A stretch of 64,000 nucleotides of DNA from Schmidtea polychroa (Eukaryota), in contig CM097885.1 in the NCBI GenBank assembly GCA_044892525.1, positions 67,580,001-67,644,000 of the forward strand. Direction: 5' to 3'. Positions 14,792 to 52,050 of this stretch are shown in pieces; within the stretch, counting starts at the first letter, position 1; each line of letters starts with the position of its first letter. Made by a program: the position numbers and the translations under genes. The notes beneath the pieces are model-generated. The model saw only the letters and a program-made list of their open reading frames with translations. It searched no databases and was not told where the DNA came from.

Positions 14792-17700
14792 ATGGAACTA
14801 AATGTAAACTTTTTTCATTTCTTTAGTCATTATCAAAATATTATTTTATCTTTTATGAGCTATTGGATGATATTTATTGGTTTTGTTACATTTTGCTTTC
14901 TACTTAAATACAATGCACCATACGGTCGGTATTCAAATTATTTATTCGATTTTCACATACCTGCGAAATTAGCATGGCCTTTAATGACTATTTCCCCGGT
15001 TTTGACATTTGTTGTTTTCCTATTTGTAAAAGATTATTTTGATGTGAGAATCTTCAATTATTTTTACTTGTTATATTTTATTCATTATTTTAATAGGTTA
15101 TAATTAATTTTTGGTAATGTTAAATATTACAATTCTTATTCTAGATCGCTGATTTATCCAAATCTGATTAAAAATAGTCAACCAATGCCATTAGTACCAT
15201 TTGCACTAGCTTTTGTTTTTCATATATACAACAGTTGTTTGCAGCTTATTTCAACATTTAATAGTCAACCGTCTTTTGGATTTGTCAATATAATTGGTAA
15301 GATAAATGTTATTTTTAATTTCAGTCTAAAATATTAAGTAAAAAAATATTTTGCATTTATAAATTTTATGATGTTAGACTTGTAGTAATATTAACGTACT
15401 TATGCTTATGATCCCTTACTATACTATATTAATACATAAATGATTATATAAAATTAATTTGCAAATTAAGTAAGGGTAATCTAAATTTCCTTTCTACATT
15501 CTTTTGATGAACAAAAACTGCATTGTCCGCTTCGGTGTATTTTTCGTAAATGTACCTCAGTATCGCAAATACAACCTACAAATGTTATTTCGTCTTCAGT
15601 TTATGTTCGCAGAAATAGTTGTTTGTATGTTAAAGTACTGATTCCCAAAGTGGTCCACGTCGACAATTATCATAACCCACTACAAGCATTTATTTTTTGA
15701 TTAATTATTTTATGTAACAGATACTAAATTTTAATTTGGTTCGTTTTAATTTTAATTTAATTAATAAATGTGTAAAACTTCTTGTTTTTTTAAAGTTTTT
15801 CACACTTCACTTAATTGGAGTAAGAATTTAAATCTTTCAAAGTGAGTAGCACCATACCAACTGCCAAAAATACATTTGAAGTTGATGAATTTGCAAAAAT
15901 CAATATCAGGTAAGCAGTGGTCTACCAAAAACCGAAAAACAGGCCAAGGGGTCCACGAGACAAAACAGTTTGGGAACCTCCGTGTTAAATTTTCACTATT
16001 CATATATTATATTGGTCAAAGACAAAAAAAGGTAAAAGACAAATAAGACTAACCGACGGATTATTGGCTCTTTAAATAAACGCTCATGCTTGTCATGTTT
16101 CGACCAGTGTACCCATAACAACAGTCATGTTGGTACTGCACACTGTCCTTGAAAAATAGGTGGCAGGCGACCTGCTCCCTTACACCTCCCCCACCCATAG
16201 GTTTCTGGTGGGTTCTCAACGGTCGTTAAAATGTCTTACGACCAAATAAAAAAAAAATCACTTTCTCATCAAGGTGGTAATATTTGACATATTACTCAGT
16301 TCTATTAATTACCCCGGTCGCTCCCGTGTCATTTAACTTAATCACTTTAAAATGAAAATATCAAGACAGCAAATTATATTGATGCGACCAAAATATTCAT
16401 TCACAAACACCAAAATTTGATCACCTATATTTAAATCGAGAGTCTTCACCAGCCATTTTGTTCGATATCAGTTAAATTTCAACTGTCAATATTACCATTA
16501 AGACTTTGTGTATGTAATATCTGTATAGATGTATGTTTTAGAAACCCCTTCCAAGGTCATAGTGGTTGTAAATATTGCTGGGGCACCACTCAGTTGACCT
16601 TCCTTGATTTACGCTTAGCTCTAAGGGATGATTGCCCATTTCATAAAATCACTATTCCCTTGTCGACTTCGAGTAGGACCCCACATAATTTATCCTACAA
16701 CATGGTACCCGTGGATTGCTCCACGTTGGAACTGTACCACGCTGGCGAGACGTCAGTAAGCAGGTGAGCTCCTGCCTTAGAACTACTCCTTACTGAGGCC
16801 TCGACTTCTCCCCATGCGACTGCCGATAGAAGGACTTACGTCTACGTACGCTGTCAATCTTCCTTATGGCACGACGAATGCACATATATCCCGACATATT
16901 AAACTAATAAGCTTTCGTTTTTACACAGTTGTTAGCTATTTACCATAAAAACCCAATCACCAAAACTACAATTTTATTACAATATTATAACGTTGGACTA
17001 TACACATTTAAACAGATCACTATCGTCAGGGAGAGGATCGATGAGAAGATAGGATAGTCGAAGCATGTCAGACAATGATCGGAAAAGAGTAGTTCACTAC
17101 AGCTGTTCATTTCTCCCATTCGGTATCTTTTAGTAGTTCGTCCAGGTCAAAAAATTCACTGGCATTTTCTTCCCACGTTACCCCCGTGGCTGCGATGATC
17201 CGCGCTGGGACTCCGGTGGTTAAGTCAATCGAGAGGTGGGAGTTGGTGGTAGTGATCGGATCTCCCGCTGGAGGGTTACTAGATACTACCGAGGCTCGTT
17301 CACGCTGCCTCCTCTTACGCTCGGTCCTCGTGGGTTGCCGGCGCTTAGGTTTCGCGATTGGCCGATTCCCCTGCGGCTGAGTCGATGCAGGTGGGACATT
17401 GGGCTGCGCTTTACTAGTCCCTATGACGATAACATCCTGACAACCTGGTGAGAGTTCAGCTTCCACACACTCAGGACAGGACCTCTTGAATGGGGACGAC
17501 GTCTTCGCCGAGGTGTCGTGGTGCACCGGGAACAGATTATCGGCTTCCTGGATGGGGATTTGCACAATTTTCTTCGTCGTTGTCGCGTGCACATACACCT
17601 TGTGTAGTGCCTCGGATTGCTCTTTAATCAAGCTTCGTTGGGAGCGGCTCTCGGAGATTAGAGCGTCCCGGCAATGTTCGCTACGATGAAGCTTTTTCTG

Positions 17701-20700
17701 CATCTCCTTCATTTGCACTGGGCTGAACCATGTGCCTTCCAGCTCGTCGATCTTCCGCTTGTATCGACCGATCTGGGCTTGTAGATCTTTTATCACTGCA
17801 TTTTTGTCTGCGCAGGAGAAGCAGGGTCGTAGTACTGACTTATTCTGTGATAACATGTCGGATGGCTGTAACGAAGAAAATTAAGATAATGATACGTATA
17901 ATCGTCAGTTAGCTATAAGGGTCTATTTGGCGTGAGGTACCTGGCAAGAGGAAGGGCAAGATGAGTTAATGAGATCAATTCTCTCCCTGTATAGTCGATC
18001 ATCACAAGTTTATCTGTCCTTTACCCAATTTTACTCCTTGGATTTCTCCTTTTCCGTGCACCAAGGTAATTCACCAAAAAGTTATCTTACGGCTGTTTAG
18101 AAACTATCTCTATATTTTTACTTTAGTTTAATTTATTATTCCCCTTAATTGATTTAACTTTGTTTATTAATTATTCTATTTTACCCCCTACTTGAGTTAA
18201 AATTTTGAACGAAACACACTTAGTAAAAAGTCTATGCTCTTACCGCATTTATCGGTCCAAGTTCATTTCGAAAAAAAATTTCCATCATCCCCCCTCCGTT
18301 GGCATCTCACAATCATCACCTAAATATGCCTTTTGTACGATCATCAGAAGTCTATCATACTGTAATGATATTCGTAGATACAGGAAAATTTATTAACTTA
18401 TTAAGTTTTTAGTATAATCCATAGTTTGAGTAGGATCTAAGAAATCTAAATTCAATCTTCTCATGGGAAGGAGAAATTTCACGCTAGAAAAACTGGCAAA
18501 TTTAACGATGTGGCTAAGGTTGTGATTATCGTTTACTATACTTGGTTGGACTATAACAATCCTCTACATCGGTTTAGGAAAAGGTTCTATCATTTGGTTA
18601 CGAATATCTCTCGTTATTATCAAAAGGACATCACACTGATATATTCATTTATAATCTAAGTTACGTAATTTAGGAAAATTAATCTCAATGAATGCACTTT
18701 AAAAGGGGTCTCATATTTAGCGGAATAATTGTAGAGCAGATGGCTTATCTCTTTACTGTCATATCTCGGTAATCAATACTTGTGAATGACCCACTTGGGC
18801 CCTACTACATGCGAGTCATTATCTGATGCACATGCTTATTGCTGTTCGTTTCTGCTCACTACTTATCGGATATAATGCCGTGTGAATTGAAGTTCCTCGT
18901 GTTCATCAACTATCTCTTTCATGGGCTCTTATCTATTCGTGAGTTAGTTAACGAGCCTCTTATCAATGCATGCACGTAAAGCAAAAAAAATATTGGATTC
19001 ATCCTACCGATTTGGTAATTTCTCATCAACCCGTTTCGTAGATCTGATCAGTATGAATTGAATGTTACCTATCTGCACGTTTTTACGTTAGAAAAAAAGT
19101 TCGCGACGCTGTTACGACCGGTTAGTTCACACAACACTCTGAAACGGGATTCTTGTCTAGCTTTTCCTACTGTTGGAAATTATTACACTTCCTGCGGTAG
19201 ATGTACCAGATGCGAGTATGCCTCAAGGATGAAATGAAAGATGACTACGAAAAATCTAAATCAACGATGGAACTGTTCACGTGGCGGAAAGCTAAGTTTA
19301 CAATCGTGATTTAACTAAAATGTATTATGATGTCTTAATTTGTTATTGAAATTTTCCTTCACATCTACCGTGATAATATTTCTAATTGAAAGTAATAGTG
19401 CTATCGATCGAAGTAGTTATTTTCCGAGTGACTAGCGGTTAACTCTCGCACAAATTCGGTCTCGAACCAAGAATACAGCCAGTGGTTACGTTGAAGGTTC
19501 CGATTTTTAACGCTCACAACCTTTTTCCAGAGCTACTCAACGTCTGTTGACCTTGCAAAAACAGATAAAGTGTCCACCTCAATCACTGTGTATCGCATAG
19601 CTATTCTACTATAAGCCTGAAATTAATCTTTCGATCAAATTCCTGTTACTCAAATCAGATTTTTGGTCGCCCTCAGCGATTGAACCCGTGAAGAAACCTT
19701 CACCTGACGGCCCATTCTCGCTGCGTGATTGAAACGATGTACGTCCAACGATAGAGCTCCCGAAGGCACCTCTTGTCATGAACGCCATCCATCTCAACGC
19801 CACGTTTCTCAATAAATTTCATATTCATAAAATAGTCATACACATAAATCATGAACTCCTACAATAAATCGTTTATTTATGAATGATTATTACATCGAAA
19901 TAACTATTTAAATAGAAATAAATAAGTAAATAAATAAATAAATTCCTTACTGGGAAATCAAATGAAGGAATAAAACTTCTTAAGTTAAGAATTTAATCAT
20001 TAAATAATTGCTCATAACACTTAATAATCTAAAGAAGAAAATCGCCTTACTGTAGTTAATGAATCGAAGTTTGTGAGCTGAGTCGAAAATTATACGCTAT
20101 CTCTCTGCAACGTTGATTTAGTAGAGTACGATACTGTTGTTCCCTCGAATTATGATTTCCTGTTGAATGCGTTGAGTAGGTTTCGTTGATTCTTGAGTCC
20201 TGATTGTCTATATCTGTAGTAATTTTGAAATTAACAGTGAATGTAATGGGTCTTGTGTCTGTATATATAGTATTTTTGCGTGTATGCGGACCAATCAGAT
20301 TTGAGTACCGCTTATTTTAATTATTTAATTTATTTTTTTCTGTTTTATGATTATTTTCCCTTATTTTCTTTGTTTTTATTATGTTTTTCTATTTATTTCC
20401 TTAACTTCCTCATTATTTATTAAATTTCCTTCCTTTTGTTGGTTGATCTATTTTCCTATTTCTATTTTCTTATTTTCTTATTTTGTTTTAATTCTTATTT
20501 TTCTAATTCTTATTTTTCTTATTTCTTGTTCCGTTTTATTCTTAAGTTATTTATTTTGTTTTTATTTTCTTTAGTATCTTATTTGTCTTACCTTCTAAGT
20601 TTAAATTTCCTAAGTTTACATTTTCGACGTTTAAATTTTCGACGTTCGACGTTTAAATTTTCGACTCAGCCCAACAATATAAATATAATACATGTCCACT

Positions 20701-23700
20701 TTTACATTTTGGAAAAGTATAACTTAGTTAACACTGCATTATAAGAGATGAACTGTAGATGATCGAGAATAACGACCAAAATGAAAGATCAAAACAAATT
20801 AAATTGTTTGTTCGTGATTCGTTCAAATCTTTCAGTTAGAGCCTTACTCACTCGAACTGCGAATCATTGAGAAGAATAAGAGAAGAAAATTCTGATAATC
20901 TTAATAATGCAATGCCGGATTCAGAACCGATGATCAAATCACAACAAAGTGAAGGACAAATCTGAATATGAATTAAGACTGATGAGACTAATATTTTCGG
21001 CCTCTCGAAGTAAATGATCGATGTCGAACTTCGGTAAATTTTCCTCTATCCAGGGAGTACCCACGACTGGAATGACATGAAAAGATTGAGGTTTAGTTGC
21101 GAGAAATTCTGCCGTGGCTTTCTCGTGGTTATCCACCATCACTGCTCCCACTTCTGCTTGCTTACCCCCTTTACGTTTGGACCGTTCGGCGCGGGTCAGC
21201 GATTTCCCTTTTGGCTTAGTGGTTGGTACCACGAGGACAGGAGAATTTCTAGGCACAGTCGATTTGATTGGTTCGTGAATTGTCTTGATATAGATTACTT
21301 CATGAAATGACGAGGGGGTTGAGATTTCTCCATGATTCAGGCAAATGGTTTGTTTCGGCGGGCTCGGACCCTCAGGGTGATGATGTTCTGGGAAGATTTT
21401 GGTCCGGTCAGCCACTGGTACTTCAAGAATCCGCTTTCTCAATTCAGATTCGGAGTATTGGGGGGGCGCTTGTGATGAGTAGGTACAAGTGTGCTCCATG
21501 ACCCATCGTTAAACAAAGACATGACTCATAACAAAGAACATGACGTATACCCGCCCATCCAATAAGTAATAAATGACGTCATCAATGACTCATCACACAT
21601 GACTCACACTTATAACTAATCAGTGGTGACTCATCAAGGGTAACTCATTTCAATGTTACATTCAAATTTTTAAAGGATCAAATTATGTCAACCTTTATGG
21701 ATATCATTCGAAAGGTCTTGATGAGCACTATTCAATGGTCATATCCTCGAAGGTTTAAGGTGTATCCTTAACCTTCAACATTTTAAAAACTATATAATAT
21801 AGGTGTCAATCGAAAGGTAATTCAATATGTAGTTCAATAGTCTAAACTACCGCAACGTAATATTATTGTCGATACACGTGTTAACATATTGGAAGTAATA
21901 ATTACAAAAACAATGCAATTTGAATGTAATATTAACAAAAACCCTTCAATTCATGTGCAAACTCAAACAATTACTAATAATAATAATACATAGAAAAATT
22001 ATAAAAAATTTTTCGCATAATAATAATAATAATATAACAGATTAATACATTTATTAAAAAAATCCATGTTATTCATTATCATCATTTAAAAACCTCCATT
22101 AAGTATTTGGTAATTACTAACAGCAAACGTACATACTAATATGTACTCGTAGACATTTAGTGATTTTTCTTTAAATTGTTATTATAAATTAGTTAAATAG
22201 TGAAGCTATATCACTATTATCAGAAACATAAACTTTAAAAAACAAACAGCAACGACAAAAGAAAGCACATGTAGTGGGCGTATACTGATCAAAAACTGCG
22301 GGAGATACGCGAGTGACGTGTTTTGAAATGTTATTATAGTTAATTGGACAATAATCTCCGCTGTGTAGCAATTTAAAGCAGAGTCATTGATAAAATATGT
22401 TTTGGTATCAAGCAAAATCGTAATCAAATTATATAATAGTCGCTATTTATTGTTTTCATCTATATCTGTAACTATATACAATTTTATCTTCTGGAAAAGT
22501 TATTATACACACCAAACCTTAACATATTTTTGTGTTTATAATTAACAACTGAGATATTTTTATATTTCAATAATAAATTTCTGTCACTGGGCTGAAAAAT
22601 ACAAGTTCATAGTGACAAAATGATAGAGTAATATTTTGGATGTTGGTGTAACCTGGAACCTAGATCTAGACTAGAGGTTTTTAATCTTTTTTAGTAGCGT
22701 AGTACTATTTTATATACTTCGCAAATGCGGAGCCTCAGTATTAAAAATGAGTTTAAAATTACAGATATTCACACTATTTTTTTTATACACAGATACACTG
22801 AATTTCAAAAAAAAAATTATTCGTGTTTATTCATTTATTCTTTCATAAACGTTAGAAGCACCAAGGGTTTTTTCCATGACTATTCGATTAAGATGTTTTT
22901 TAAGAAATTCAAAATGGTTGACAGGAGGGAGAATATTTTTTACTATTCGATAAAATCTTTCATTGCTTTGAGTATGAATATGAGACTGTAGATCAGGGAT
23001 GCACAAAGTGCGGCCCGCGGGCCACATGCGGCCCTTTTGAATAATTTGTGCGGCCCTCATGTATATTTATTTAATATATTTATTTAAATATTTATATAAA
23101 AAATTTCCAGATTTAATATAAATTACATAAATTTAATAAAAATTGCACAGATTTAATAAAAACTCTAACTACAAAGTATTTGTTTTGTATATTTGTTTGT
23201 ACCAAGCTAGAATTCAAAAAATATTCGCAAAATAAATATTTATTATTGTGAAGTCAGATGGTTAAGCCGCGGAAAAACATTACAAAGATTTTCTGATTTG
23301 TTGGAAGAAATTGAAGTGTTCCTAAATGAAAAGCAAAAGCCTTTTCAAGAGCTTTCTTATGACAGGTGGCTTTGCGATTTTGCATTTCTTGTGGATATAA
23401 CCACGCATCTAAATATTCTCAATTTAAAGTTGCAGGGTAAAAATCAATTTATTTCAGAAATGGCAAACCACATGGAATCATTTGAAAACAAATTAACTTT
23501 ATTCCAAAAAAATCTAACGGATAAAATTTTGCATCATTTTCCTACATGTCAAAAATATTTTCCGCGACACTCCGCGGACTATGATTTTTACATAAGTAAA
23601 ATTCAGTTACTGAAAAATGTTTTTGAATCAAGATTTGCTGATTTCAAAAAATGAAAACTGATTTCCAGCTATTTGCTGATCTGTTTTCAGTTAATATCGA

Positions 23701-26700
23701 TGAAGTTAATCAAGATATCCAATTAGAACTCATCGATTTGCAGTCATCAGATCAGCTTCGTAATAAATTTAACGAAAGCGATCTTCAAAATTTCTATAAA
23801 TGTTTACAAAAAGTGTCATATACTAATTTAATTCAAAAAGTAGCATACATTGCATCTTTATTTGGTTCAACATACTGCTGGGGTGTTACTCGTTTGACTA
23901 CCAGTAATCCCACTTCAGTCTAGGAGATGAGTGCCCATTATGATTATACTTGCCGTCACTTTGTCAACCCTGAGCAGAACCCCACATAACCTGCTATCCA
24001 ACATGGTACCCGTGAATTGCTTCACGTTGGTACTGCACCATGCCGGCGGGACGCCAGTAAGCAGGTGAGCCCCTACTTAGGACTACTCCTTACTGAGGTC
24101 TCGACTTCCCACTCTCGACTGCCGATAGAAGGACTTACGTCTTAACCAAACTCTGACTTCCTCTTTCTACCTTTGGTTGGATCACGGCTGACTAATATTT
24201 CTAGAATCTCGAGAGCTTTCCACCCTTATCATTATTGTCATACTAAATCCATCACACATGAAACAATGAAAACTCAAAATTATTTATTATTATTGTTATC
24301 AGACATGTACAACATTTATGGGTTATATATACCCGAAAAACATCAAGACGAGAAAAATAATGAAGAAAACTCGATGATTTTTTAGTTCGACTGGTTTGCC
24401 ATACGACAGAGTTATCCTACGAGAGCCTTTTCATTTCTCCCACTCTGTAGCTGCTAACAACTCCTCTAAATCGAAAAACTCGGAGGCATTCTCCTCCCAA
24501 GTCACTCCAGCAGCAGAAATAATTCGTCCGGAGATCCCTGACGTTGGATCCGTTGTCACCGAAGGAACACTGGCTTCACTTATGAGCTCCGTTGGTTGTA
24601 CGTGCTGCTTGGCGGTTATTCGCTCACGCTGTTTCTTTTTGCGTTCGGCTCGGGACAACTGCCGACGCTTTGGCTTTGATGTCGATGGGTTAGATTGAGG
24701 TACAGTGGACACAGAAGCTATCGCAGGAGGCGCTTGACTTGTTCCCACATAGATGATGTCGGGTTGTTTTGGCGAGAGCTGTGTCTCTACACACCCTCTA
24801 CACGACTTCTTAGGAGGAGGCGACGAGGTTGAGGAAGTGTCATGGTGTGCCGGAAAGAGGTTGTCGGCTTCATTGATTGGAATTTTTACAATCTTCCTCG
24901 TGGTTGCTGCCTGTAGATAAACTTTGTGCAGTGCTTCGGACTGCTCCTTTATCAGGCTTCTTTGGGAACGGCTTTCGGAGATCAAAGCGTCCCGACAATG
25001 TTCGCTACGATAGAGCTTTTTCTGGGCCTCTTTCATCTGAGCGGGACTGAACCAGGTCCCCTCTAATTCGTCTATTCTCTTCTTGTACCGCCCAATCTGG
25101 GTCTGTAGATCCTTGATAATGGCGTTCTTATCCGAGCAGGAGAAGCAAGGACGCAACGCGGGCTTGGCAGTTGGTATCATGATCACTATAAAGGTAAGAT
25201 GGAGATGTAAAATATACAAGATTCAAACTAAAGTGAACATAACTGACTGGCTACTCGTGGATACTTGACAGACAAAAAAGGGAAGAATCTATTTTACATT
25301 CCGGTTCTACTGCATAACTTATTTACAGAAAAATTTTATTTAATTAGATGTCATTGACTTGACGAGTGCAATTGATTCTAATTCCCAAAATTCTTTAAAT
25401 AAGGGTATGTGATTTCTACTGAATTCCCTTTTCACTCAATCGTTACACTATATCGGCGCTGATTACTTTCTCAAAAACTCTCCCCCCTTTTATATTCTAC
25501 TAGTCTAATTTTATACTTGAGGGTTTGTAATGGTTAATAATATTATAGTTATGATACTGATAATGTAATATAATAACGCTTTAGTAATAATGATATTATG
25601 ATATTCAATCAGAATTTTGTAGATTATTTATTTTAATTTATCGAAAAAACATACATTTCGCTAAAATAACTAGTTTAAAATCGTCGCTATCCTTTAACAT
25701 ATTTAATTCGTGGTTTACTGGCAATTGCACTTTAATGATTTTCGCGTCTCTACTGATTTTACTGTTAATTTTGTTATCTGCAATAACTACTCTTTACCTG
25801 AGAGAACGTCTGAAAATTTTCAACATATGTGTAATGATCTTACGTCAGCTGTTATCCTAACACGCTTACTTTACATTATCTCGCAGAGACGGAAAATTTC
25901 ATCGGGCACGACATATGTCAAAATTCGCTACTGCTGATGATGACTAATTGATTGCATTATCTACCTCATGTGGGTACTATTACTCGTGGCTACTATGCAT
26001 GCCTATCTAGTACTCTGTGTGCCTGTCATACGGACTCTCGTGTGCTGTTACTGCTACCTTATCTCATTTGCTTGGTATGTGCCATTTTCACAGAGATTTT
26101 ATCGTTCCTGATGTCGCATGATTTTTACTGAACAGTGGTTTACCGGAATTATAATTTATGCTACTGTCAGGTCTCATCGTGGAATTTTTATCATCACCAA
26201 CTCGTGTGAACCATCACCATCGTTTGGAACTTTATTGGATATCTCAATGATTGTTGAAGGAACAATTCTACAAAATGCTGAGGTTTTATTACTCCCTACG
26301 CTACCCTAAACTCAGATTTTCTTATTCGGATGGAATATCGTCTCAATGAAATCTACTCTTAGCCTTTCACAATTTTTCCCTCAGACACTATACATTCGGA
26401 AATTTGGGTAGACATGGTGATGAGCTGGCTTTCTTTGTGAAAAATAAATGTTATCAGATGGATTTTTGTGGTATTTTATATTTTTATAATTTTTTGAATT
26501 ACTTAATTTTTTTGGAATTTAATAATATTTTGGAGTTTTAATATAATATACATTCTGAACGGACTTATAGAAATTGAGTGTACGACAACAAAATTTTATG
26601 CTAAACTATTGTTACGGAGTTCGGACAAATAGAATTTGCAATACTTAATTTGGTAGAACTATGTTTTTCAGATGATGTACACTATGAGGCGACACTAGAT

Positions 26701-29700
26701 TTTGACGAATTTACTGAATAGTTGCATGGATTTCTTTCGGCTAACCTAGATGTTAAAAAGTTCACGAAGACGACTAAATGAAGTTATAGGGTGACGCCCT
26801 CAATCACTATGTGAATTCTCAAAAATACTTTCGTTCAGTTATACATCTATCCTGTCGATCACTGTCTGGCTATCATTTTTCTAGAATACTCTGTTTATAC
26901 AATTTAGTCGCATCTTCAGCAATTGGACCCGTGAAGAAGCCTTCACATTTCGGCCCAATCTAGCTGCGTGATTGAAATACTCCATGTCCACCGGCTGAGC
27001 TCCCGAAGGCACCTCACACCCTGACATGGAGTATCTCAACTCCACGTTACTCAACAAATAAAAATTCATAAAATATTTAATGCAATCAATAAAACATAGA
27101 AATCTAGATAAAAATTATTTATTAATTCTATGATACTCAGACATGTAAATTTTATTAAACATTAAAAATTACTAAATGTGGAATCAAATGAAGAGTTGTT
27201 TAATAAAGAATTTACTATAATTCAGTCTTCATAATTACTTTAATGTAAACTAAAATTCTAAACAAAAGTTCGGCTTACCAATATACTAGATGCTGAGCTG
27301 AGTCAAAAATTCAAATCGAATGTTCCTGAAAATTAGGCTGTTCGCTGTAAATCTGGATAGTTCTCAAATGTTGTCTCGGTTCCTCGTAGTTTTCTGTAAG
27401 TAGTTGCTGTCGTCGGTAAAGTGTTTGAGTTAACTGTGATCTATTGAATGTTGGAATTAACGGTATTTCTAATAAATTCGCTTACCTATTGAATGTTGAA
27501 ATTAACGGTAAGTTTATGATTTTTATGTTTGCTTATATAGTAAATTCTGGTGTATGCGGACCAATCAGAATTGAGTACCGCTTATTTTCTTAATTTAATT
27601 TATTTTTTCCTGTTTTCTGGTTATTTTTCCTTCCTTTCTTATTTTTATTATATTTTTTATTTATTTCTTTAATTGACTCATTATTTGTTGCATTTTCCAG
27701 TATTTTGTTCGTCATTCTATTGTCTTATTTTAATTTTTCTTATTTTTATTTTGTTTTAATTCTTATTTTCTAATTATTGTTTCTCTTATTTCTTATTCTA
27801 TTTATTCCTGAATTTATTTATTTTATTTTTAATTTCCTTTAATATCTTACTGTCTCAATGTCTATATTTTTGAAAGTTAAGTTTTTTGACTCAGCCCAAC
27901 AATACGTATGCGAACAAACGTTCTCTGTTATGAACATGAACAAGTCGAAGCAATGTAACCGCCTTTCAAATACTAAATTACATTCAATTCTACGTTTGGG
28001 AACAACAAACTTGACACCAAATATTTTAAAAATTGTTAATAAAAAACAATGTCATATTGCTCAAAAAAAAAATTAAATTAATTATTTCAACTAAATTAAA
28101 ATGCATTTTTTGTATATAGAAACCGGGTTATAATTTAAAATTTTACAGATTAGGTGTTTTTTTCTAAATGTGGCCTTCATAGAATGTATTATTAGAAAAT
28201 GTGGCACCCATACTGAAAAGTCTGTGCATCCCTGCTGTAGATAATCTACAAAGGCAACTGAATGATTTATGGTATGATATATATAGCCATAATCACTAAG
28301 TCCTGTATAACCTCATCAGTTGTCAGTCATGATGGTAGCTCCAGTTAAGACATTTGCTTAGATGAATTCTAAACACGTCGCACAACTTTTATTACGTACA
28401 AACATCCACCTAACTTGTTTTGTGCGCCTGCAGATCACACCAATTATCCAATATCTTTTCCCGGCTAGGATCCTAACTATTCCATCTCGTCTTCACACCA
28501 CGTGAGTTTCATCAATTTCAGCAATCTCACTTGGTCCACCAATTTTCCGAGCGGTTCAGTTACATAAACTGTATCCATACATAAGAGAAACTTGTTAATA
28601 AAGTTATTCAAGCTCTTTTCACCGTGCTGTACTTACAATAATAACTGTGAAATTGGCAATAGCATAGCCCTTAAATACATGATTCGTAGGCATTTGCTTA
28701 ATGGCATGTAATTTCCTTCAAAAATACTATTCTTAAAAATAGATTCTGATGAGCGGCAACTTCTACTAGAGCGCCATCTCCCATTTATTCCGTGTAGAAT
28801 ATTACCATATCATAAGCTCCTGTTTCTTCCACAAACATCACAGTAATTTACACGTCATATCAGCCCCTCTTCTAGTAAAAATTGGAGTGAATCTCTTCAT
28901 TCATTGTAAGCTCTGTCAACTCAAAATATTCATTGTAAAGGTTTGAAAAAATGAGTAAAATAACCAACTTTTATATGTTTTAATGTTTTTATTTTTTGCC
29001 ACCCCCAAAACCCGTGTCATACCAAAAAATTTAATAAAGAAAGAACACTTTAATGAGAGCAATGAGTTTGCTTTAAGACTTAATACTAAATGTTAGAAAC
29101 CAATTTTGCTAAGCTTAAATTTCTGTCACTGGGCTGAAAAATACAACAAGTTCATAGTCACAAAATGATAGAGTAATATTTTGGATGTTGGTGTAACCTG
29201 GAACCTAGATCTAGACTAGAGGTTTTTAATCTTTTTTAGTAGCGTAGTAAAATTATAAAATTCTAGAAATTATTTTGAGTTGTTACAAAAAAAATTTCAG
29301 AAATTGTAAAATTTTAAAGAACCATTTGGAACTTGTCGAGAAACCCTTGAGCTCCGTAGAGCACACATTGAAAACCAGTTATATTTGTTTTATTTTTAAC
29401 AATATTGGTAAATAGTTGAATGAAAAATTAATATGAAGGAAAAATGATCTATTATTGTATATTTCTAGTTGTACTGTCGTGTAATGACCATTTTCAATTA
29501 AAATTAATTAATCTCTACATTTTATTCGGTTATTTATAATGTTTCGCTAATCCTGACATTTAAATAAAATCGATTTCTTGCAATCAGAAATTGTTTTGAA
29601 TAAAGAGTTAAAAGGCGCCATAGTTCGATTTATACTAGAATTTGGTACGACTTTAGTATTAAACGTCAAACAATCGGATTTGATTCAATGCCACAATTTC

Positions 29701-43270: not shown

Positions 43271-43680
43271 ANNNNNNNNNNNNNNNNNNNNNNNNNNNNN
43301 NNNNNNNNNNNNNNNNNNNNNNNNNNNNNNNNNNNNNNNNNNNNNNNNNNNNNNNNNNNNNNNNNNNNNNNNNNNNNNNNNNNNNNNNNNNNNNNNNNNN
43401 NNNNNNNNNNNTCAATGATCATGAGATAATTAACTCTAATATAGAAAACTGTATACCCACCGACCCCTGCCTTGAAGTATCTATTATTCTTCCGTCTAGA
43501 TATCGACCCTCTCCTCTCGATGATACACCATCATCCTTCCATCTTATCTGCGGTCAGAGACCTGCATCCTGTTGTTGCGAGTACGCGACTCGGATGACCC
43601 CTTTCTAGTGCAGCTTTAGTCTAGAGGATGAACGCCCACCTCGATTTCGCCCGTCATTTATATGGTCATCGCCGAGCGGG

Positions 43681-43846
43681 ACCCGTACATAACCTACACT
43701 CCAACATAGCACCCGTGAATTGCTTCACGTTGGAACTGTGCCATGCCGGCGAGACGCCAGTAAGCAGGTGAGCCAGCTCATTCGGACTACTCCTTACTGA
43801 GGCCTCGACTTTCCAACCCTGACTGCCGATAGAAGGACTTACGTCT
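43681..43846 (-). ncRNA. Conserved structured motif A (A3)
   Basis: GCAA-loop hairpin at 43714-43729, with the same stems as A1/A2. Confidence 0.7.
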
Positions 43847-44139
43847 ACTCATTCCGTCGCCCCATCGCAATGTTTCTAGCTGAGTTTGTCAACTGACTAA
43901 TGCTCCTCATAATTTTGTGACTCTCAATACCATTTACCAATTTCAACTCAACTGTCCTAAGATGAACACAAAAAAAAACGTATGCAGACAAAAATGGTTT
44001 ATTATTAAGATTATCACACAAATATATCTAACACCTATACAATACAATTCACGACAACAGGAAAAGAGACAAAGGTAAAAATGTTATCAGACAATGTTCG
44101 GGTCATTTCAGAGAACGAAAACCTTTTACGGAGAAGTTC

Positions 44140-44889
44140 TCATTTCTCCCACTCCGAGTCTGCCAATAGATCTTCCAAATCGAAAAATTCAGAGGCGTTT
44201 TCCTCCCAGGTTACACCAGCGGCGGAGATGATTCGCCCTGAGATCACTGATGCTAGATCGATTGCTGCAGGAGGGTTGATGACTTTGATTGGATGATTCG
44301 GCGATTTCTGGTTCTGTTTGGCGGTTACGCGTTCCCGCTGTTTCCTTTTGCGTTCGGCTCTCGATAATTGCCGACGCTTTGGCTTCGATGCCGTTTGATT
44401 GGTCGGGGGTGCTGCAGAGGTAGATGCTATCGCAGGTAGCACTTTACTGGTTCCGGTAAAGATGATTTCTGGTTCTTTAGGTGAGAGCTCGGTCTCTACG
44501 CACCCATGGCAGGACTTTCCGACTGGAGAAGAAGACCCGCCAGAAATGTCATGGTGCGCCGGGAAAAGATTTCCGGCTTCATTAAGTGGGATCTTCGCGA
44601 TCTTCCTTGTGGTTGCTGCCTGGACGTATAATTTGTGCAGCGCCTCCGACTGCTCTTTTATTAGGCTCCTCTGCGCCCGACTCTCGGAAATTAACGCGTC
44701 TCTACAGTGCTCGCTTCGGTGCAGCTTCTTCTGAGCCTCCTTCATCTGGGTGGGACTAAACCATGTCCCCTCTAACTCATCTATTTTTCTTTTGTGCTTT
44801 CCGATTTGGGCCTGGAGCTCTTTGATAATTGAATTCTTGTCGGAACAAGAAAAACAAGGTCGAAGAACGGTCTTGGGATTTGGCAGCAT
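44140..44889 (-). CDS. Orphan 249-aa protein, copy 3
   Basis: Intact ORF. Acceptor TTTCCTTCTTAG (AG at 44899-44900) 9 nt before the ATG. AATAAA at about 43998. Confidence 0.85.
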   Translation of the reverse strand: MLPNPKTVLRPCFSCSDKNSIIKELQAQIGKHKRKIDELEGTWFSPTQMKEAQKKLHRSEHCRDALISESRAQRSLIKEQSEALHKLYVQAATTRKIAKIPLNEAGNLFPAHHDISGGSSSPVGKSCHGCVETELSPKEPEIIFTGTSKVLPAIASTSAAPPTNQTASKPKRRQLSRAERKRKQRERVTAKQNQKSPNHPIKVINPPAAIDLASVISGRIISAAGVTWEENASEFFDLEDLLADSEWEK

Positions 44890-46662
44890 TTGTAGTGACT
44901 AAGAAGGAAAGATGGAAAATGAACACACATTAAATCAATGAGAGTGTCATCATTTACCCACCTCCATATTTTACTAATCATAGACGAAAATATGGGTTTA
45001 TCATTCAAAGAGATCCTACCACCCTATGGATCCTCATCTCTTTTGGGGTCATTAATTATAAGCAGATGAATCAATCAAGCCGGATTTCGGACAAGGGAGG
45101 GGAGATAGTACCACTAGTGAGAGAATTTATAGGTCGAGGAAATTATTATTTATTTAATTCGCTTGAAGTCACTAATTAACGTGCGCAGAGAATCGAGTTA
45201 GATCGTTGGTTTTCCTCTTAGAGGAGGATTTTGTTGAGTGTATTATATACTGGGTCGAGTAAATATCTACGGTAAAGGGGGTTCATAATGCACTCTAATT
45301 AGTTCATACATGATGAACGGGAGGTTGTTTAATTTTTCGATTATTTGTTAATTCTCTCAAATTATCCACATATTTGTTTTATCTTGTTAAAATAATACTT
45401 GTTTAATAATAGTTGATATTAATGCTAATAATAATTAGGTCAAAAAAAATTGAAATAGGTTTTGTGTCATTCATATTAAGATAATAAAAGACAAATAATA
45501 ATAATTATAATTGGTATTAGCATCAAAAGATATTGTCGTTGTGATAGCTGAAAACGGTATCCATGCGAGATAGTAGCCGAGCATTCCTGCTAGGTAGATA
45601 AGGAAATGTCAGCCCGGTGGTTGGCTATTAATCCGGAGCGGTGAAATCTGATACCTGTCGGTGGTTTAATTAGCTAATGGAAATTCCATCTGGTATGTTC
45701 GGTCCGATTTTACATGAGTAGGGGCGGGTGTAACTTTACCCACTGTGCTTGGCTACTGTGTATGTCTGCAACTGGGTGACGCATGCAAGGTGCGCTTTCA
45801 CACACTTATTTATACTTATCGCTAGTAATGTAGGTTTTAAATGTTTGCATGCTGGCATTTTCTCGGGTTTTATCTACCGCGTAATTGCTCATAACTCTCC
45901 TGCATATGATGTTGATCTACTAATTCTCACCGAATTATTGGAAAAATTATGGTTCTCTATACCGCAATTGTTGGATATAGTTTGCTCCAAGGGTGGATTT
46001 TTTGTCTTTAACCCCTCAAACACGGTGTATCGATCTATTCCTTAAGTTCTGGATATTTTCTACCTATCCCTGCTGGATTTCCAACTCCATGGAATATTGG
46101 AATTTTATATTTAAGTAACAAGATCATCAGGCTAAATTGGAAAATTATGTTTTCTTGGCTCGAATTGGCTGCATTTCTCATTTTAAATTATTCGATGACA
46201 AGAGTTTATGTAATTATGATAATTAATTGAATGTAAATCCTTTTATATAAAATTCTAAAAATTAATTATAGTAAATCATCTTATGTAATTTAAAATTTTA
46301 TTTGGGACAAACTCGTTTTATGAAATTCCAAATAATTATCTGAAATCAATCATTTTACATGGTTCTACCATTTATTTGCAAGCAGTCAATTTAAGTAATC
46401 CTAATACTTATCTGAAGCAATCTACTTTGAACTCCCTTGCAACTATGTCTTTCAGAGAACTTTTAGATGAACGGAATAATAGTTCTAAAGGTCATAGGCT
46501 AAAAATTGGTCGGAACAGATTCAGAGTGAAAAGTAGGAACATTGGAGATATGTCACAGATAGCCTCACTAAGGTTCGAACAATTTTTGACGCACAACTTA
46601 CATCGATGATAGAGAAAATTTAGGCTTAGTAGAAACGATATTTGAGGACGATAGTGTGACAC

Positions 46663-46920
46663 CCTCAATCACTGCGCGAATACATAATAATTCTCGGATT
46701 CATTTATTCATATATCTCTGTTCTCGGTCACTGTATGACTATCAATTTTCTATCAAAATTTGCCTATAGATTTTAGTCGCACCTTCAGCGACGGACCCGT
46801 GAGGAAGCCCCCACATTACGGCCCGAATCAGCTGCGTGATTGAAATACCCTATGTCCACCGGTGGAGCTCCCGAAGGCACCTCACACCATGACATAGAGT
46901 ATCTCAACGCCACGTTTCTC
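46663..46920 (-). ncRNA. Conserved structured motif B (B3)
   Basis: Stem ATACCCTATGTC (46845-46856) / GACATAGAGTAT (46891-46902) with a C-G to T-A compensatory change relative to B2. cUUCGg loop. Confidence 0.72.
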
Positions 46921-47153
46921 GCAAAATTGAATAGTCTCCAGTAATAATTCATAAAAATAATTCGTAAAAGATCAATAATTCCTAACGAGCAAGTCATTTA
47001 TTATTAAGCAAATTATTAATTTAAATAGAGCATTCGAAAATCAAACGAAAAGAAAAACCATTCTTTAAATTAAAATTATTATTAGACTATACGCATTACT
47101 TAAAATTTCAAAATAAGAAATCACAAATCCTTACCGAATGATTGATATAAGTA

Positions 47154-47762
47154 TGGGCTGAGTCGAAAAAGGGTACTGTGTCGAATCAGTTAATGCTCGA
47201 ATATCGTCTAGTTCTGTAAAAATCTCTTGAATCTTGGAATTGTCCTCGTGAGTTATCGTGCGTTAGTTGCTGGATTTCTGTTCTGTCGTAGAATAGATTT
47301 ACCTATTGAGGTGGTTTGATTAACAGTAGTTGTTATTTAAATTTCACTTACCTATTGAGGTGGTTTGATTAACAGTAATTGTTATGTTTTTAATGCCTGC
47401 TTATATATTAATTTTTTGTTTACGCGGACCAATTAGAATTGAGTACCGCTTAATTTTATTAATTTAATTTATTTTCCTTGTTTTTGAGTTATTTCTTCTT
47501 ACTTTCTTTATTAAAATTATGTTTTTATTTATTTTCCTTAATTTTCTTATTATTTACTATATTTTACGTTGTTTTCTGTCATTCTATTGTCCTATTTTAA
47601 TTTTTCTCATCTTTATATTTTTTGTTTTAATTCTTATTTTCTAATTATTGTTTTTCTTATGTTTTATTCTATTTTATTTGTCAATTTATTTGTTTTTATT
47701 TTTTATTTTATTTTAGTTAAGCTTGCCCTAATTTCCCAACTACCCTTCGACTCAGCCCAACA
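47154..47762 (-). promoter_or_regulatory. IR-bounded promoter module of unit 3
   Basis: TGGGCTGAGTCGAA / TTCGACTCAGCCCA inverted repeats. CGGACCAATTAGA at about 47425-47437. TATATAAG on - at about 47400-47407. Consensus donor CAATAG|GTAAGT at about 47346-47357. Confidence 0.7.
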
Positions 47763-48079
47763 AATCACTCGGGGACCCATCAAAATTGCGTCCCGCAATT
47801 GCATAGTTATCTTACTTCATGCATTCATAAAAAGGATATATCGAAACAATTATACTACAAAAACAATTTTATTCTAAGATATAGGTCAAATCAAGACCAA
47901 GCAAGTATCACTTAAGGTGATAGTTTGTATATACAATAAAAGTTTCCACATATGATAACACCAATGTTTGAGTTAGAGTTTATGAACTGTTAACCATTTG
48001 ATGCTTCTGCTGGCGGTTGTTTGTTGGTTTGGGTATTGATGTTGAGATAGGTCTGACTGTTAGAATTCGGCTGGATTGG

Positions 48080-48634
48080 TTAGTTACTCGGGATTCGAGG
48101 TCGGAATGGGGTTGGGTTAAGATTTGTCAGTGGCACTTCTTGAGGATTTCTGTTCGAGATTACTCTTATTGATGTCGAGATTCTACATCTATTTCTAACT
48201 TCGTAAATCTTCATGAGTATTGGTAGACATAGGAGGAGGGTTTCTGCGATCACCACATATATGAGATAATGGGTGTCATTGATTTCGGGAGGTGTTTTTG
48301 GCTTTTCTACAAGATTTTCGAAATTCTCTTGTTGCATTTGTTGTTCTAACTGGTCGAATTGTTGGATTTGTTCGAGGATTTGTTTGTTTATCATTTTACA
48401 AATGGGATTCTTTTTACACATTGTTTGGATGTTGTTGATGTGTGATCGGGTTGATTGAATGGTTTGGATGATATGGATTTTTACTGTCATAGGGTATGTG
48501 CATTGGCTGGATTCTTGTTTAGGTTCTTGATTTTGATTGCGGTAATCTCGTACGATTTTCGGTTGGGCGTTTACTTGTTTGTTCTCCATCAGAATTATCA
48601 ATACCGTCATTGTTATCATCATCTCGCCTCGCAT
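48080..48634 (-). CDS. Small predicted type I membrane protein (signal peptide, Gln-rich coiled coil, TM)
   Basis: Hydrophobic N-terminus MMITMTVLIILMENKQVNA. TM segment YLIYVVIAETLLLCLPILM. ATG at 48634 follows an AG acceptor at 48639-48640. Confidence 0.65.
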   Translation of the reverse strand: MRGEMMITMTVLIILMENKQVNAQPKIVRDYRNQNQEPKQESSQCTYPMTVKIHIIQTIQSTRSHINNIQTMCKKNPICKMINKQILEQIQQFDQLEQQMQQENFENLVEKPKTPPEINDTHYLIYVVIAETLLLCLPILMKIYEVRNRCRISTSIRVISNRNPQEVPLTNLNPTPFRPRIPSN

Positions 48635-48690
48635 GATACTATTATACATTCATTAGGTTTTATTTACAATTGGTTTTAGTGACCCTTAAT

Positions 48691-49395
48691 TTAATGGTTC
48701 TGATTTGGGTTATTTTCGGCGATTCTCATCAAGGTGGATTCTGCTTTAATGACCCTGTGTCTTAACTCGGGCAGCATTTCCAACTGTCTGTTCTTTTCAC
48801 GGGCCTCCCTTTTCATGTGCCTTATCTCCTTTTTCAGTCTTCTAATTTCTTCCCGTTTTTTGTCGAGATTCCTTTTTAGTTCGATTTGTAGGAAGTCTTG
48901 TTCATTTTCCTGCGAAAGGTTTCGTTGTTGTTGTTGTTGTTTTCCCTCGATCTCTTGGTATTTGCGAATCCATTTCTTCATTTCCTCACTTTCTCGTTGT
49001 TTTTCCTCCAATTGTCGATTTAGTTTATTTATAGTTATTTGGTGTTCTTTCGCCTCTGTTTTCCAATAATCCTGGATTACTTCTTCTGCCTTGAAGCTTG
49101 CCCTCTCTTGCCATAGTTCCTCTGCAATCTTTTCCCAGTTTCTTCCTCGTGTTCGTTGTTCTTGCAGCCATTCATTCTTCTCTTCAGCTTCTCTCTTTAT
49201 TTCTCCTAGCACTTCGCACTCCTTCTTTAGTATTTTAATCATTTTTCGGTCTTCTATATATTTGTTTACTAGTCTCTCGTTTTCGTACTTCTCTTCCCGT
49301 AACTTGGCCTTTAACGTTTGTGTTTCTGTTGTTTCTGCCTCAATCTCTCCCTCTTCTACGTCGCTCGTAATTTCTATTATTTCCTCGATTTTCAT
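48691..49395 (-). CDS. Glu/Lys/Gln-rich coiled-coil protein
   Basis: Open frame 48691-49449. The likely start is MKIEE at 49395, 2 nt after the acceptor CATATTACAG. Confidence 0.7.
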   Translation of the reverse strand: MKIEEIIEITSDVEEGEIEAETTETQTLKAKLREEKYENERLVNKYIEDRKMIKILKKECEVLGEIKREAEEKNEWLQEQRTRGRNWEKIAEELWQERASFKAEEVIQDYWKTEAKEHQITINKLNRQLEEKQRESEEMKKWIRKYQEIEGKQQQQQRNLSQENEQDFLQIELKRNLDKKREEIRRLKKEIRHMKREAREKNRQLEMLPELRHRVIKAESTLMRIAENNPNQNH

Positions 49396-49564
49396 ATCTG
49401 TAATATGTACAGTTAATGGTGCGCTATAGTGCGACTTATACATATACATTTATATAAAATTTAATAGTTCGGGTTACAGTCCCTCGAATACTTTTATAAT
49501 ACTTTAATTTTTTTTTTGTTTGGGATATACGTCCCGATTTTTGTTTTCATCTTTTTATTCACCC

Positions 49565-50620
49565 TTATACGAAGGTTTCCTCCTGTCCCACATAACCTTC
49601 ATCACTATCGACCGCTGGATGCAACTGTATCGCGATAGGGTCATAGGGTAGGTAATATTGGGGGATTTGAGCTCTCAATTCATTAACTTCGTCTCTTAGA
49701 GCTCGAGTGATATTCAGCTCTTCGTCGAGCAGATAAGTGAGATACCTTGTTTCTTCGTCTTTCGCCTCTACTTGTCTATCTAAGGCCTTGATTTTCTCGT
49801 CGCCCTTCCATCTTTCAATTTCTATTTCCAAGTTTTTGATATTTTCGGTATACATTTTCCTCTCGTTTTCTAATTTTCTGTTTTTTCCCGCTAGGACCAT
49901 GTTTCTTTGTTCTAACGATCCTTGTAATCCATTAAGGTCTCTTTTCATCTCTTCGACCTGATTTACTAATTCCACAACCCGTCCTGCTTGCTGGGTTATC
50001 ATCTCTTCCATTGCGGCATTCTCGTGCTCTCTTATGTCGCATTTTATTGCCAAATGTCGCTCAAACTCCATAGCCTTCATCTGCCATGTTTGGCTTCGGG
50101 CGGCGACCTTTTTCAACCGTTTCAGTTCTTCCTTTATTATTAAATTTTCCTCCCATTTGCCCTGTTCGCTCTCATATCCGAGTCTCATGGGCAATTCTTT
50201 CATCTCTTTTTTCATTTCATTGCTTTGTCTTTTCCATTTTCTCGCTTCTGCCACTAAGTGCATCATTTTCCTTCCTTCTATTTGCTTTTCCGCTTCGCGC
50301 TTGGTGTTCTCATCGGTAAGTCTCTTTCTCGCTTCCTGCACTAGCTGCTTTAAGTAGTGGCTGTGCGCTTCTTGGCGGGTATTTTCTAGTGACGCCCATT
50401 TTGATGCTCTTTTGCATGCTTCTGCTTCCGCTCTTAAGTTGTGTATTAACCATTGGTATTGACTATTCTCATCCTCTCTAGCTTCTTCGATGTGATTTCG
50501 GGTGCGATTAGTTAGTTGGAACATTACTTTGTTCCATTTTTTGTTATGTTCTCGGGGAATTTGTGTCTTGTTGACATTGGTTGGGGCTATCGCAGTTTCG
50601 GTTATTTCCTCTTGTGTCAT
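49565..50620 (-). CDS. Coiled-coil protein, 351 aa
   Basis: Long open frame with heptad-rich charged composition. Acceptor ATTTAG 2 nt before the ATG. Confidence 0.75.
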   Translation of the reverse strand: MTQEEITETAIAPTNVNKTQIPREHNKKWNKVMFQLTNRTRNHIEEAREDENSQYQWLIHNLRAEAEACKRASKWASLENTRQEAHSHYLKQLVQEARKRLTDENTKREAEKQIEGRKMMHLVAEARKWKRQSNEMKKEMKELPMRLGYESEQGKWEENLIIKEELKRLKKVAARSQTWQMKAMEFERHLAIKCDIREHENAAMEEMITQQAGRVVELVNQVEEMKRDLNGLQGSLEQRNMVLAGKNRKLENERKMYTENIKNLEIEIERWKGDEKIKALDRQVEAKDEETRYLTYLLDEELNITRALRDEVNELRAQIPQYYLPYDPIAIQLHPAVDSDEGYVGQEETFV

Positions 50621-50813
50621 CTCTAAATCATAGACATCGATTAATCTTTTTATTATGAAAAAGGAATTTATTCATTATTTACTGTTTCTTTGGAAATTTT
50701 CGCATCATTTTTGGGTTTTCGTATTTAGGGTTTTTCATACTATTATTATATAATATTTATTGGTTATATACACCGATATATACAGATTATTATATACAAC
50801 ATTATTCGATTGG

Positions 50814-51965: not shown

Positions 51966-52050
51966 TCTATAATTATATGTACATATAGTTCTTGTCGATA
52001 CAGGTTCGATATTTTATTTACAATTATTTACATTTTAAGCTAGGTTGGGT

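Follow-up and report, generated by a model that had tools for sequence, protein, structure and literature searches.

Three large units in the window, the 64,000-nucleotide stretch of Schmidtea polychroa DNA analysed here, are almost certainly long terminal repeats (LTRs) of Burro-type giant Gypsy elements. The explanation that best accounts for the findings as a whole, and that we regard as probable, is that these LTRs carry a selected gene together with a cap-proximal mini-intron that is rebuilt.

Three LTRs in the window

All three units lie on the minus strand and have TG...CA ends, at 16576..20676 (unit 1, 4101 bp), 23876..27901 (unit 2, 4026 bp) and 43570..47762 (unit 3, 4193 bp), as given in the preliminary description of this DNA, and they share one order of modules with a 249-aa ORF, an AATAAA signal and two motifs, A and B. 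The target site duplications (TSDs) that it named were also found, ATAT at unit 1 and ATAC at unit 2, and the flanks of unit 2, when joined as an empty site, translate as STYVCE. The sampled copy nearest to unit 1 is 91% identical; unit 2 lies within a hAT-like transposase remnant, a label that the preliminary description gave to 23211-23651 and where Pfam had no match. That description had also proposed very large solo LTRs with a gene of their own, which holds for units 1 and 2 but, as regards solo status, fails for unit 3: this unit, which lacks a TSD, forms the 3' LTR of a Burro-like element truncated at its 5' end, and it shares 97.5% identity with a solo LTR (L150). The statement that transposase and RT were absent was mistaken, since unit 3 is joined to an internal region that encodes RT, RNase H and integrase (56242-58953, minus strand). 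On the same strand, this region contains the 3' part of a polyprotein in two frames (52571..58953), the second of which holds an ankyrin region (52571-56338), as well as four accessory ORFs downstream of pol (48080..52013) that include a RING-TRAF/MATH ORF (50814-52013), and over 7386 bp it matches the interior of a full-length element at 95.9% identity. The 5' LTR and the 5' part of the polyprotein belonging to unit 3 were not found in the next 30 kb, where only a diverged LTR (~70%) was seen. A decayed relic of the LTR gene family at 20996..21448 (minus strand; HMM iE 5e-12) is a fourth, older LTR remnant.

Architecture of the parent element

The units recur far more often than chance would allow: a 17-nt start pattern has 521 exact matches versus 0 for its reversed control, and the LTR ORF gave 6906 first-look candidates, 150 of which were scored. 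The LTR pairs of three fetched full-length copies are 99.7, 100 and 98.3% identical; two of these copies measure 30.5-30.6 kb and have a 4732-codon frame, and the third measures 29.1 kb with a broken frame. A single, perfect 4-bp TSD encloses the whole element, with its TG...CA ends, in all 11 direct LTR pairs, and perfect TSDs also border 45 of the 49 solo LTRs. A primer binding site (PBS) beyond the CA end is present behind the 5' LTR of paired copies; it is complementary to host tRNA-Pro(TGG), for which cognate tRNA genes are present, and lies 7 nt past the CA in 12/12 5' junctions, although the motif also served to class these junctions. By eye, we also spotted a potential 9-bp pairing with one G-U between the LTR start and the PBS.

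The polyprotein of one element (E1) comprises gag, CCHC, a Monjiviricetes fusion domain, PR, RT, RH, IN and ankyrin domains, and thus has the Gypsy order PR-RT-RH-IN, of which RT-RH-IN is present in the window. The env-like fusion domain lies in frame between gag and pol (PF24664, E 3e-70), and Pfam also found ankyrin and MATH/TRAF cargo. In the E1 frames scanned, BIR, BCL2-like, SUMO-like and dUTPase-like domains had no Pfam match at E 0.01, where the Burro review used HHpred. A polypurine tract before the 3' LTR is absent; at its expected place all 15 of the 3' junctions have a nearly invariant mixed-base hairpin (47763..47800, minus strand, at unit 3), which is also found in two further families, B and C. 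In the diverged family B, 6/7 LTRs examined share the layout of exon 1, mini-intron and exon-1 copy described below, with repeat sequences unrelated to those of family A. Family C, with 862 promoter-pattern matches, has no mini-intron and no LTR ORF yet retains motif A, with motif B read in one LTR (L196); three stretches inspected showed no pol frame, and family C is a non-autonomous sister family.

Another reading, that the units are Ginger-type DNA transposons or a non-autonomous family of their own with ATAY as target, can practically be dismissed. Most of the sampled complete copies are indeed solo (49/75), and ATAY/RTAT is enriched among the target sites (9/55, of which two are the window's own, versus 3.3% expected; p=7e-5). 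However, the same LTRs pair directly around 22-kb internal regions with pol, one TSD and a PBS, which refutes this reading, and two unit-1-like LTRs (L167 and L170) are 3' LTRs of elements. The strict ATAY target of the preliminary description was not borne out either, with 38 different TSD 4-mers and the motif at only those 9 sites: the target sites show a weak, symmetric bias towards AT and not a 17.6/297-like sequence target. A Ginger/TIR DNA transposon would have long terminal inverted repeats and a transposase but no PBS or RT, a description that these elements do not fit.

A selected gene within the LTR

The 249-aa ORF lies on the minus strand at 17107..17856 in unit 1, 24431..25180 in unit 2 and 44140..44889 in unit 3, and is intact in 59/75 LTRs. 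Its dN/dS of 0.10-0.17 at dS>0.1, computed from intact ORFs only and with 489 of 1711 pairs unsaturated, indicates purifying selection. A predicted acceptor precedes the ATG in 57/58 LTRs (ending at 17866 in unit 1), and a predicted second donor is found in 56/58; in unit 1 the latter (GT at 20050) lies next to an inverted copy of the LTR start (20074-20087), within 20045..20087 on the minus strand. We thus consider this gene very probably both selected and, as its conserved splice motifs predict, spliced, and the LTR promoter likely drives its expression as a spliced mRNA. In public data, relatives of the ORF form part of 13 different predicted fusion proteins, most of which have an unrelated host domain, and this suggests that the gene distorts gene annotation.

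Two further segments of the LTR display compensatory changes and hence covarying RNA structures: motif A in the predicted U5 (16696..16842 in unit 1, minus strand) and motif B in the predicted large intron (19671..19804, minus strand). Rfam covariance models gave a single chance-level match (E 0.17) at four LTR loci. When 12 LTRs were compared with their two best relatives each, no precise loss of the large intron was found and no GT..AG donor-acceptor deletion was listed, which, for this small sample, fits the packaging of RNA that retains the large intron.

The LTR protein had no significant match in Pfam, PDB or viral-fold searches: a Foldseek viral search gave 0 matches at E<=0.001, a word-based protein search 308 candidates with 0 at E<=0.001, and a protein atlas a top score of 0.85 with low recognition and no lead. 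Three haemagglutinin matches among PDB sequences (E 0.3) were rejected as chance. The REV family matched none of the three window proteins, its sole match being a distant relative (P0003) below the cut-off (19.1 versus 22 bits). The AlphaFold model is weak (pLDDT 56) and predicts two long helices (15-40 and 46-94) and a basic helix. The acidic-aromatic C-terminus, which reads EFFDLDELL in unit 1, is conserved, its region having a dN of 0.05-0.13 when the window units are compared, and it may resemble activation domains.

By analogy, the LTR protein could be a Rev/Rex-like RNA-binding regulator of unspliced RNA, which we hold to be possible but rather unlikely. It may instead activate transcription at the DNA level, like foamy Tas or Tax, or act as an effector directed at the host, which is doubtful but has a genuine chance: the conserved acidic-aromatic C-terminus and the predicted helices would suit such a role, whereas distant relatives retain the helical core and the arginine-rich stretch without any alignment to this C-terminus, and the same LTR holds two covarying RNA structures.

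A predicted cap-proximal mini-intron

In unit 1, the predicted U3 spans 438 nt (20239..20676, minus strand) with an ATTGG box at 20291-20295 and a TATA box at 20263-20269, which would place +1 at 20238; the mini-intron is absent from this unit. In units 2 and 3, a first donor that the preliminary description had overlooked lies ~25 nt past the predicted start, followed by a mini-intron. On the minus strand, the predicted exon 1 of unit 2 (27486-27509) precedes a predicted 45-nt mini-intron (27441-27485) ending in a copy of exon 1 (27441-27464), and that of unit 3 (47352-47376) precedes one of 49 nt (47303-47351) ending in such a copy (47303-47327). The predicted mini-intron starts with GT, ends with AG and measures 44-53 nt in 79/80 cases, and its 3' end is a copy of the 24-25-nt first exon. 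Exon 1 is 96.5% identical to its own copy within LTRs versus 55% between LTRs, with 39 distinct 24-mers, and this identity drops at 25-26 nt from the AG.

The 5' edge of the exon-1 copy is scarred. A G is found at -1 in 14/64 cases at the copy versus 0/64 at exon 1 (p=5.5e-5), counts that are partly non-independent because copies are related, and we read this extra G as cap-derived. Indels occur there too, and the edit distance at the copy's junction is 0.234 per nt versus 0.006-0.042 nearby. These G additions and indels make this edge the likely point of minus-strand transfer, which would place the LTR gene downstream of the cap site and imply that the mini-intron is rebuilt in each cycle. 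The spacing from CCAAT to +1 is 60 in 86/92 family A promoters. In the intron-less family C type 1, it is the start site that is scarred, with a G at -1 in 6/9, a spacing of 29-32 and an edit distance of 0.148 versus 0.004-0.02. Of 96 LTRs with a promoter, at least 13 are without the mini-intron, among them the two LTRs of a single element (L104/L105), and family C is abundant without it; the mini-intron is therefore not essential.

From these patterns, we consider it probable that splicing removes the mini-intron at the 5' end of the genomic RNA and that minus-strand transfer restores it. Alternatively, there may be no splicing, the start being at the second repeat copy, with RT slippage or gene conversion keeping the two units of the 25-nt repeat similar, which is quite improbable. 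The scars are located at the second copy, simple slippage also yields exact loss of one repeat unit, and no RNA junction was seen in contigs of sequencing runs that we guess to be RNA. But the distance from TATA is ~30 nt to the first copy and ~80 nt to the second, the spacer keeps its GT...AG boundaries and narrow length range, scars in the intron-less family C fall at TATA+29 to +32, and slippage cannot account for a median identity of 100% across 39 different repeat sequences. When these contigs, from three runs guessed to be RNA and one other, were compared with 43450-59000, X5 and X6 covered the ORF and internal regions, the spacer had almost no cover, and the listing contained no splice joint; nor was a start or polyA site seen. 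A run search with unit 1 gave no RNA run among the matches listed.

A proposed replication cycle

Under the splice-and-rebuild cycle, transcription would start ~30 nt past TATA, which would give a U3 of ~0.4 kb and an R+U5 of ~3.7 kb. RNA terminating at the LTR's own AATAAA would be spliced to the LTR ORF, so that solo LTRs would be complete expression units, and read-through would yield genomic RNA. This genomic RNA would lose the mini-intron from its 5' R copy and retain it in the 3' copy, so that strong-stop DNA ending in exon 1 would pair with the exon-1 copy at the intron end and overwrite it. The cap-G and untemplated bases would thus land inside the intron, sparing the initiator and promoter. 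Motifs A and B would be cis signals, and the LTR protein would act in trans.

Where R ends depends on the polyA signal that is used. The distal AATAAA (16973..16978 in unit 1, minus strand), 3260 nt past the predicted +1, is found in 57/58 LTRs versus 9.7 expected, and R rather likely ends there, at ~3.3 kb. A second AATAAA cluster just upstream of motif B, with 45 matches at -100 to -61 from it, means that R could end early: with the same LTRs and cap site, R would be ~0.4 kb, U5 would span 3.3 kb and hold the gene, and the distal AATAAA would serve the LTR mRNA only. We consider this shorter R unlikely. AATAAA does occur between the start and motif B in 52/58 LTRs, and a polyA site can be suppressed by a donor that precedes it, as the abstract on foamy viruses describes (PMC3694450), but this region is AT-rich and 34/58 are expected by shuffling, in contrast to the excess of the distal signal.

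Taken jointly, these parts would make a complex-retrovirus-like system in which a 3.3-kb R holds a spliced regulatory gene, the intron is rewritten from exon 1 in each cycle as a sacrificial buffer, and solo LTRs supply a Rev-like factor in trans, also to the ORF-less family; we put this combination forward tentatively, at somewhat less than an even chance.

Reverse transcription normally erases introns, and the splice-then-rebuild cycle, if true, is a way for a retroelement to keep one; the scars would then map the RNA 5' end from DNA alone. Solo LTRs are usually treated as inert; with a selected gene in R/U5 they become a large, dispersed gene family, in a group that serves as a stem-cell model, and hundreds of them may be stand-alone genes. 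The ORF-less family C provides a natural cis/trans control.

Comparison with known systems

As in MMTV sag, a selected protein gene lies within the LTR and is expressed by splicing, here a predicted one. MMTV sag sits in U3, whereas the gene described here likely lies in R or U5, past the cap site. The excerpted parts of PMC12789967 give an R of 15 nt for MMTV and of 15-250 nt for retroviruses; a 3.3-kb R would likely exceed this range more than 10-fold. The same excerpts describe Rev/Rex/Rem with RRE/RxRE/RmRE, and the likeness, an analogy, lies in a small arginine-rich protein, structured RNA and many splice sites, the LTR protein differing in that it has no significant sequence or fold match. 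With foamy viruses, whose abstract reports that U1 binding suppresses 5' polyadenylation (PMC3694450), the LTRs share a donor upstream of the polyA signal, so that their 5' and 3' copies need different treatment; unlike here, that abstract describes no exon duplicate or rebuilt intron.

Burro/GYPSM1 are giant Gypsy elements of Dugesiidae planarians (Jurka 2007, Grohme 2018, reviewed in PMC6431247). According to the Burro section of that review, they share with the present elements a length of ~30 kb, a single polyprotein of >4,600 aa, MATH/TRAF cargo, tandem repeats, and gag, CCHC, an env-like fusion domain between gag and PR, RT, RH, IN and ankyrin. They differ in that TRAF/MATH is here a separate RING-TRAF ORF downstream of the polyprotein and that BIR and BCL2 lack a Pfam match in the E1 frames scanned. 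The review's section mentions no LTR gene, long R or mini-intron, and in the literature searched, which left the primary Burro paper, its supplement and Repbase outside its scope, we found no description of a Burro LTR gene or of an intron rebuilt at strand transfer. Relative to that literature, the new features are the LTR ORF under purifying selection with conserved splice and polyA signals, and the mini-intron that ends in an exon-1 copy; the Burro-type element itself and multi-kb LTRs were already known. The latter are shared with Ogre, plant elements that, in the sections of the same review, have LTRs of 1.9-6.5 kb and one or two extra ORFs in their internal region (PMC6431247).

Units 1 to 3 are LTRs of a giant retroelement

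The boundaries and TG...CA ends of unit 1 (16576-20676), unit 2 (23876-27901) and unit 3 (43570-47762), all on the minus strand, were borne out, as were the 4-bp TSDs of units 1 and 2, while unit 3 has none. The joined flanks of unit 2 translate to STYVCE, in agreement with the hAT codons proposed for its empty site. The preliminary description was mistaken in denying unit 3 an RT, since the internal region that precedes it on the minus strand encodes RT, RNase H and integrase (56245-58953), together with ankyrin repeats and a RING-TRAF/MATH ORF, and is 95.9% identical to a full-length element across 7386 bp. Over 47369-58817, it is 89-96% identical to E1, a fetched full-length element, with LTRs that match in patches only (66-89%); recombination between subfamilies is a likely source of this mismatch. 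Three accessory ORFs (window 48691-52013; E1; L226-L228) have a YAG 1-2 nt upstream of a plausible ATG, which suggests that they may be expressed from spliced subgenomic mRNAs.

Searching the 781-Mb genome with the 249-aa ORF found in each unit (LTR ORF) gave 6906 first-look candidates, 150 of which were scored; many matches formed same-strand pairs spaced by ~26 kb. LTR-LTR identity was 99.7, 100 and 98.3% in the three pairs that we fetched, two of which enclose a 4732-codon frame with gag, CCHC, env-like fusion, PR, RT, RH, IN and ankyrin domains, followed by a RING-TRAF ORF. This architecture fits the description of Burro/GYPSM1 (PMC6431247, section 7). The element class is already known, and so are multi-kb LTRs. 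A literature search that did not extend to the original Burro publication with its supplement, or to Repbase, turned up no description of the LTR gene or of a rebuilt intron.

Ends, target sites and junctions

Copies were sampled as 80 regions taken from the first 100 entries in a list of 521 start-pattern matches (without the three from the window, four near-duplicates and the final 12) and a further 20 from the top LTR-ORF matches. Among the resulting 103 sequences, window units included, the start was found in 99 and both ends were called in 75 (49 solo, 14 3', 11 5' and 1 both). Of the remainder with a start, 21 showed no end within range, and three were excluded because their ends were unreliable. 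Four common 7-mers account for 72 of the 75 ends. TSDs were perfect in 45/49 solos and 11/11 pairs, counts that are slightly circular because the end rule favoured TSD-matching ends among candidates. The proposed ATAY target preference survived only as a weak symmetric AT bias, with ATAY/RTAT at 9 of 55 sites and 38 different 4-mers. A PBS complementary to tRNA-Pro(TGG), the likely primer, lies 7 nt behind the LTR. At the 3' junction, a nearly invariant hairpin (169 exact matches) takes the place of a purine tract.

Both the lack of a purine tract upstream of the 3' LTR, seen at window 47763-47800 and at every 3' junction, and the 7-nt distance from PBS to LTR end are common to the window units' family (A) and its sister families B and C. 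The tRNA-Pro(TGG) pattern has 2164 matches genome-wide and forms a tandem array of 475-bp period at L176-L179 (C1:130.90-130.95 Mb). A solo LTR and a 3' LTR 52 kb apart (L147/L148) have identical right flanks, and L122 carries both junctions, as tandem elements with one common LTR.

A predicted cap-proximal intron ends in a copy of exon 1

A donor 54-66 nt past the TATA box with a downstream AG was found in 80/99 LTRs, at a donor-to-AG distance of 44-53 nt in 79 of the 80. The last 25 nt of this predicted mini-intron repeat the first exon: mean identity between exon 1 and its copy is 96.5% within LTRs (median 100) and 55% between them, the repeat occurs as 39 distinct 24-mers, and identity drops at 25-26 nt, that is ~30 nt past TATA. 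Of 16 LTRs lacking the rule donor, three retain the mini-intron with a variant donor and 13 have none; by-eye comparison with relatives showed exact loss in unit 1, L104/L105, L155, L169 and L170.

In the simplest reading, the 5' R copy would be spliced and the 3' copy unspliced, and strong-stop DNA with the exon-1 end would pair with the exon-1 copy and overwrite it. RT is able to add a base opposite the cap. With pairs and duplicates reduced to a single LTR each (64 of 76 anchored), a G directly precedes the exon-1 copy in 14/64 LTRs and exon 1 in 0/64 (p=5.5e-5), and among 78 pairs of close copies this junction carries 0.234 edits per nt versus 0.006-0.042 nearby. From such DNA scars we infer the cap site. 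In standard minus-strand transfer, U3 becomes linked to R at the RNA 5' end, as outlined in parts of PMC6894440 and bioRxiv 2022.12.06.519325; the relevant part of PMC4668388 concerns alternative starts and does not show base addition opposite the cap.

In MMTV, sag is located in U3, whereas the LTR gene here would lie downstream of the inferred cap, wherever R ends. If that end were the distal AATAAA, R would span ~3.3 kb, compared with 15-250 nt for retroviruses in the part of PMC12789967 that treats R. A weaker AATAAA cluster near +400 offers a serious alternative, an early end of R. In foamy viruses, according to a part of PMC3694450, U1 at a donor upstream of the 5' polyA site lets full-length RNA pass.

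Sister families as controls

Twenty loci upstream of the common PBS comprised 1 family A, 7 family B and 12 family C members. Family B LTRs (L192, L194, L195, L197, L199, L202, L204, L226-L228) measure 3.7-4.2 kb, have a GTAAAA donor and mostly encode a 253-aa diverged version of the LTR ORF; the same mini-intron design, with other exon-1 repeat sequences, was present in 6/7, the promoter of the seventh not being found. Family C (L193, L196, L198, L200, L201, L203, L206-L211, L218-L225, L229-L258; 862 promoter-pattern matches) has LTRs of 1.5-1.66 kb without the LTR ORF in elements of ~14-15 kb, and shares the PBS, 3' junction and motif A; motif B was read in L196. No pol frame was seen in three stretches, and one type carries a polyprotein-related frame of 877 codons. 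A family C tandem array of 13.55-kb period lies at C1:77.27-77.32 Mb.

The mini-intron design was absent from 10/10 family C LTRs tested, showing that the mini-intron is dispensable. After second LTRs were dropped, 23 family C loci comprised 9 of type 1, 7 of type 2 and 7 unclassed. Type 1 bears scars at its very start site (G at -1 in 6/9; spacing of 29-32; 0.148 vs 0.004-0.02), and type 2 gave a weak contrast only (0.34 vs 0.12-0.21). Family A spacing is fixed, at 60 in 86/92 and 59 in 6/92. These start-site scars, together with the fixed family A spacing, support a buffer role for the mini-intron.

The LTR gene

The LTR ORF is intact in 59/75 LTRs. Pairwise dN/dS, computed from intact frames only (489/1711 pairs unsaturated), was 0.45 at dS<=0.02 (8 pairs) and 0.32 (55), 0.17 (109), 0.16 (6), 0.14 (75) and 0.10 (218) in the following sets. 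All landmarks could be placed in 58 LTRs: 57 of these have an acceptor upstream of the ATG, 56 a second donor, and 57 an AATAAA past the stop codon, against 9.7 expected for the AATAAA. The conserved RNA structures, motif B in the predicted large intron and motif A in the predicted U5, show both-side changes in 15/47 and 13/59 pairs, a measure inflated by relatedness on which 0/500 shuffles scored equally high; neither motif matched Rfam.

Fold and family searches with the window's LTR proteins gave no match, and structure prediction yielded two long helices in an otherwise disordered chain (pLDDT 56). Thirteen distant relatives emerged from a profile search (E 1e-9 to 8e-4); most of them contain an arginine-rich stretch, 10 carry an unrelated Pfam domain and one gives a sub-threshold REV match. 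A Rev-like role is our single best, and tentative, guess; a transactivator or other effector is, in sum, about as likely.

Other features of the window

A weak LTR ORF profile match (40542-40924, iE 0.007) and a 72% repeat pair (11989-12133 / 40194-40340) are possibly further LTR relics. An uninterrupted 656-aa ORF for a gamma-tubulin complex component (Pfam GCP N and C) occupies 4701-6671 on the minus strand. A 140-bp direct pair, 95% identical, flanks the region of unit 2 (22574-22712 / 29116-29257). A non-LTR-type RT element in several frames (59640-62647, plus strand) adjoins the stop of the unit 3 internal region, and a 217-bp tandem repeat (63332-63987) lies at the window end.
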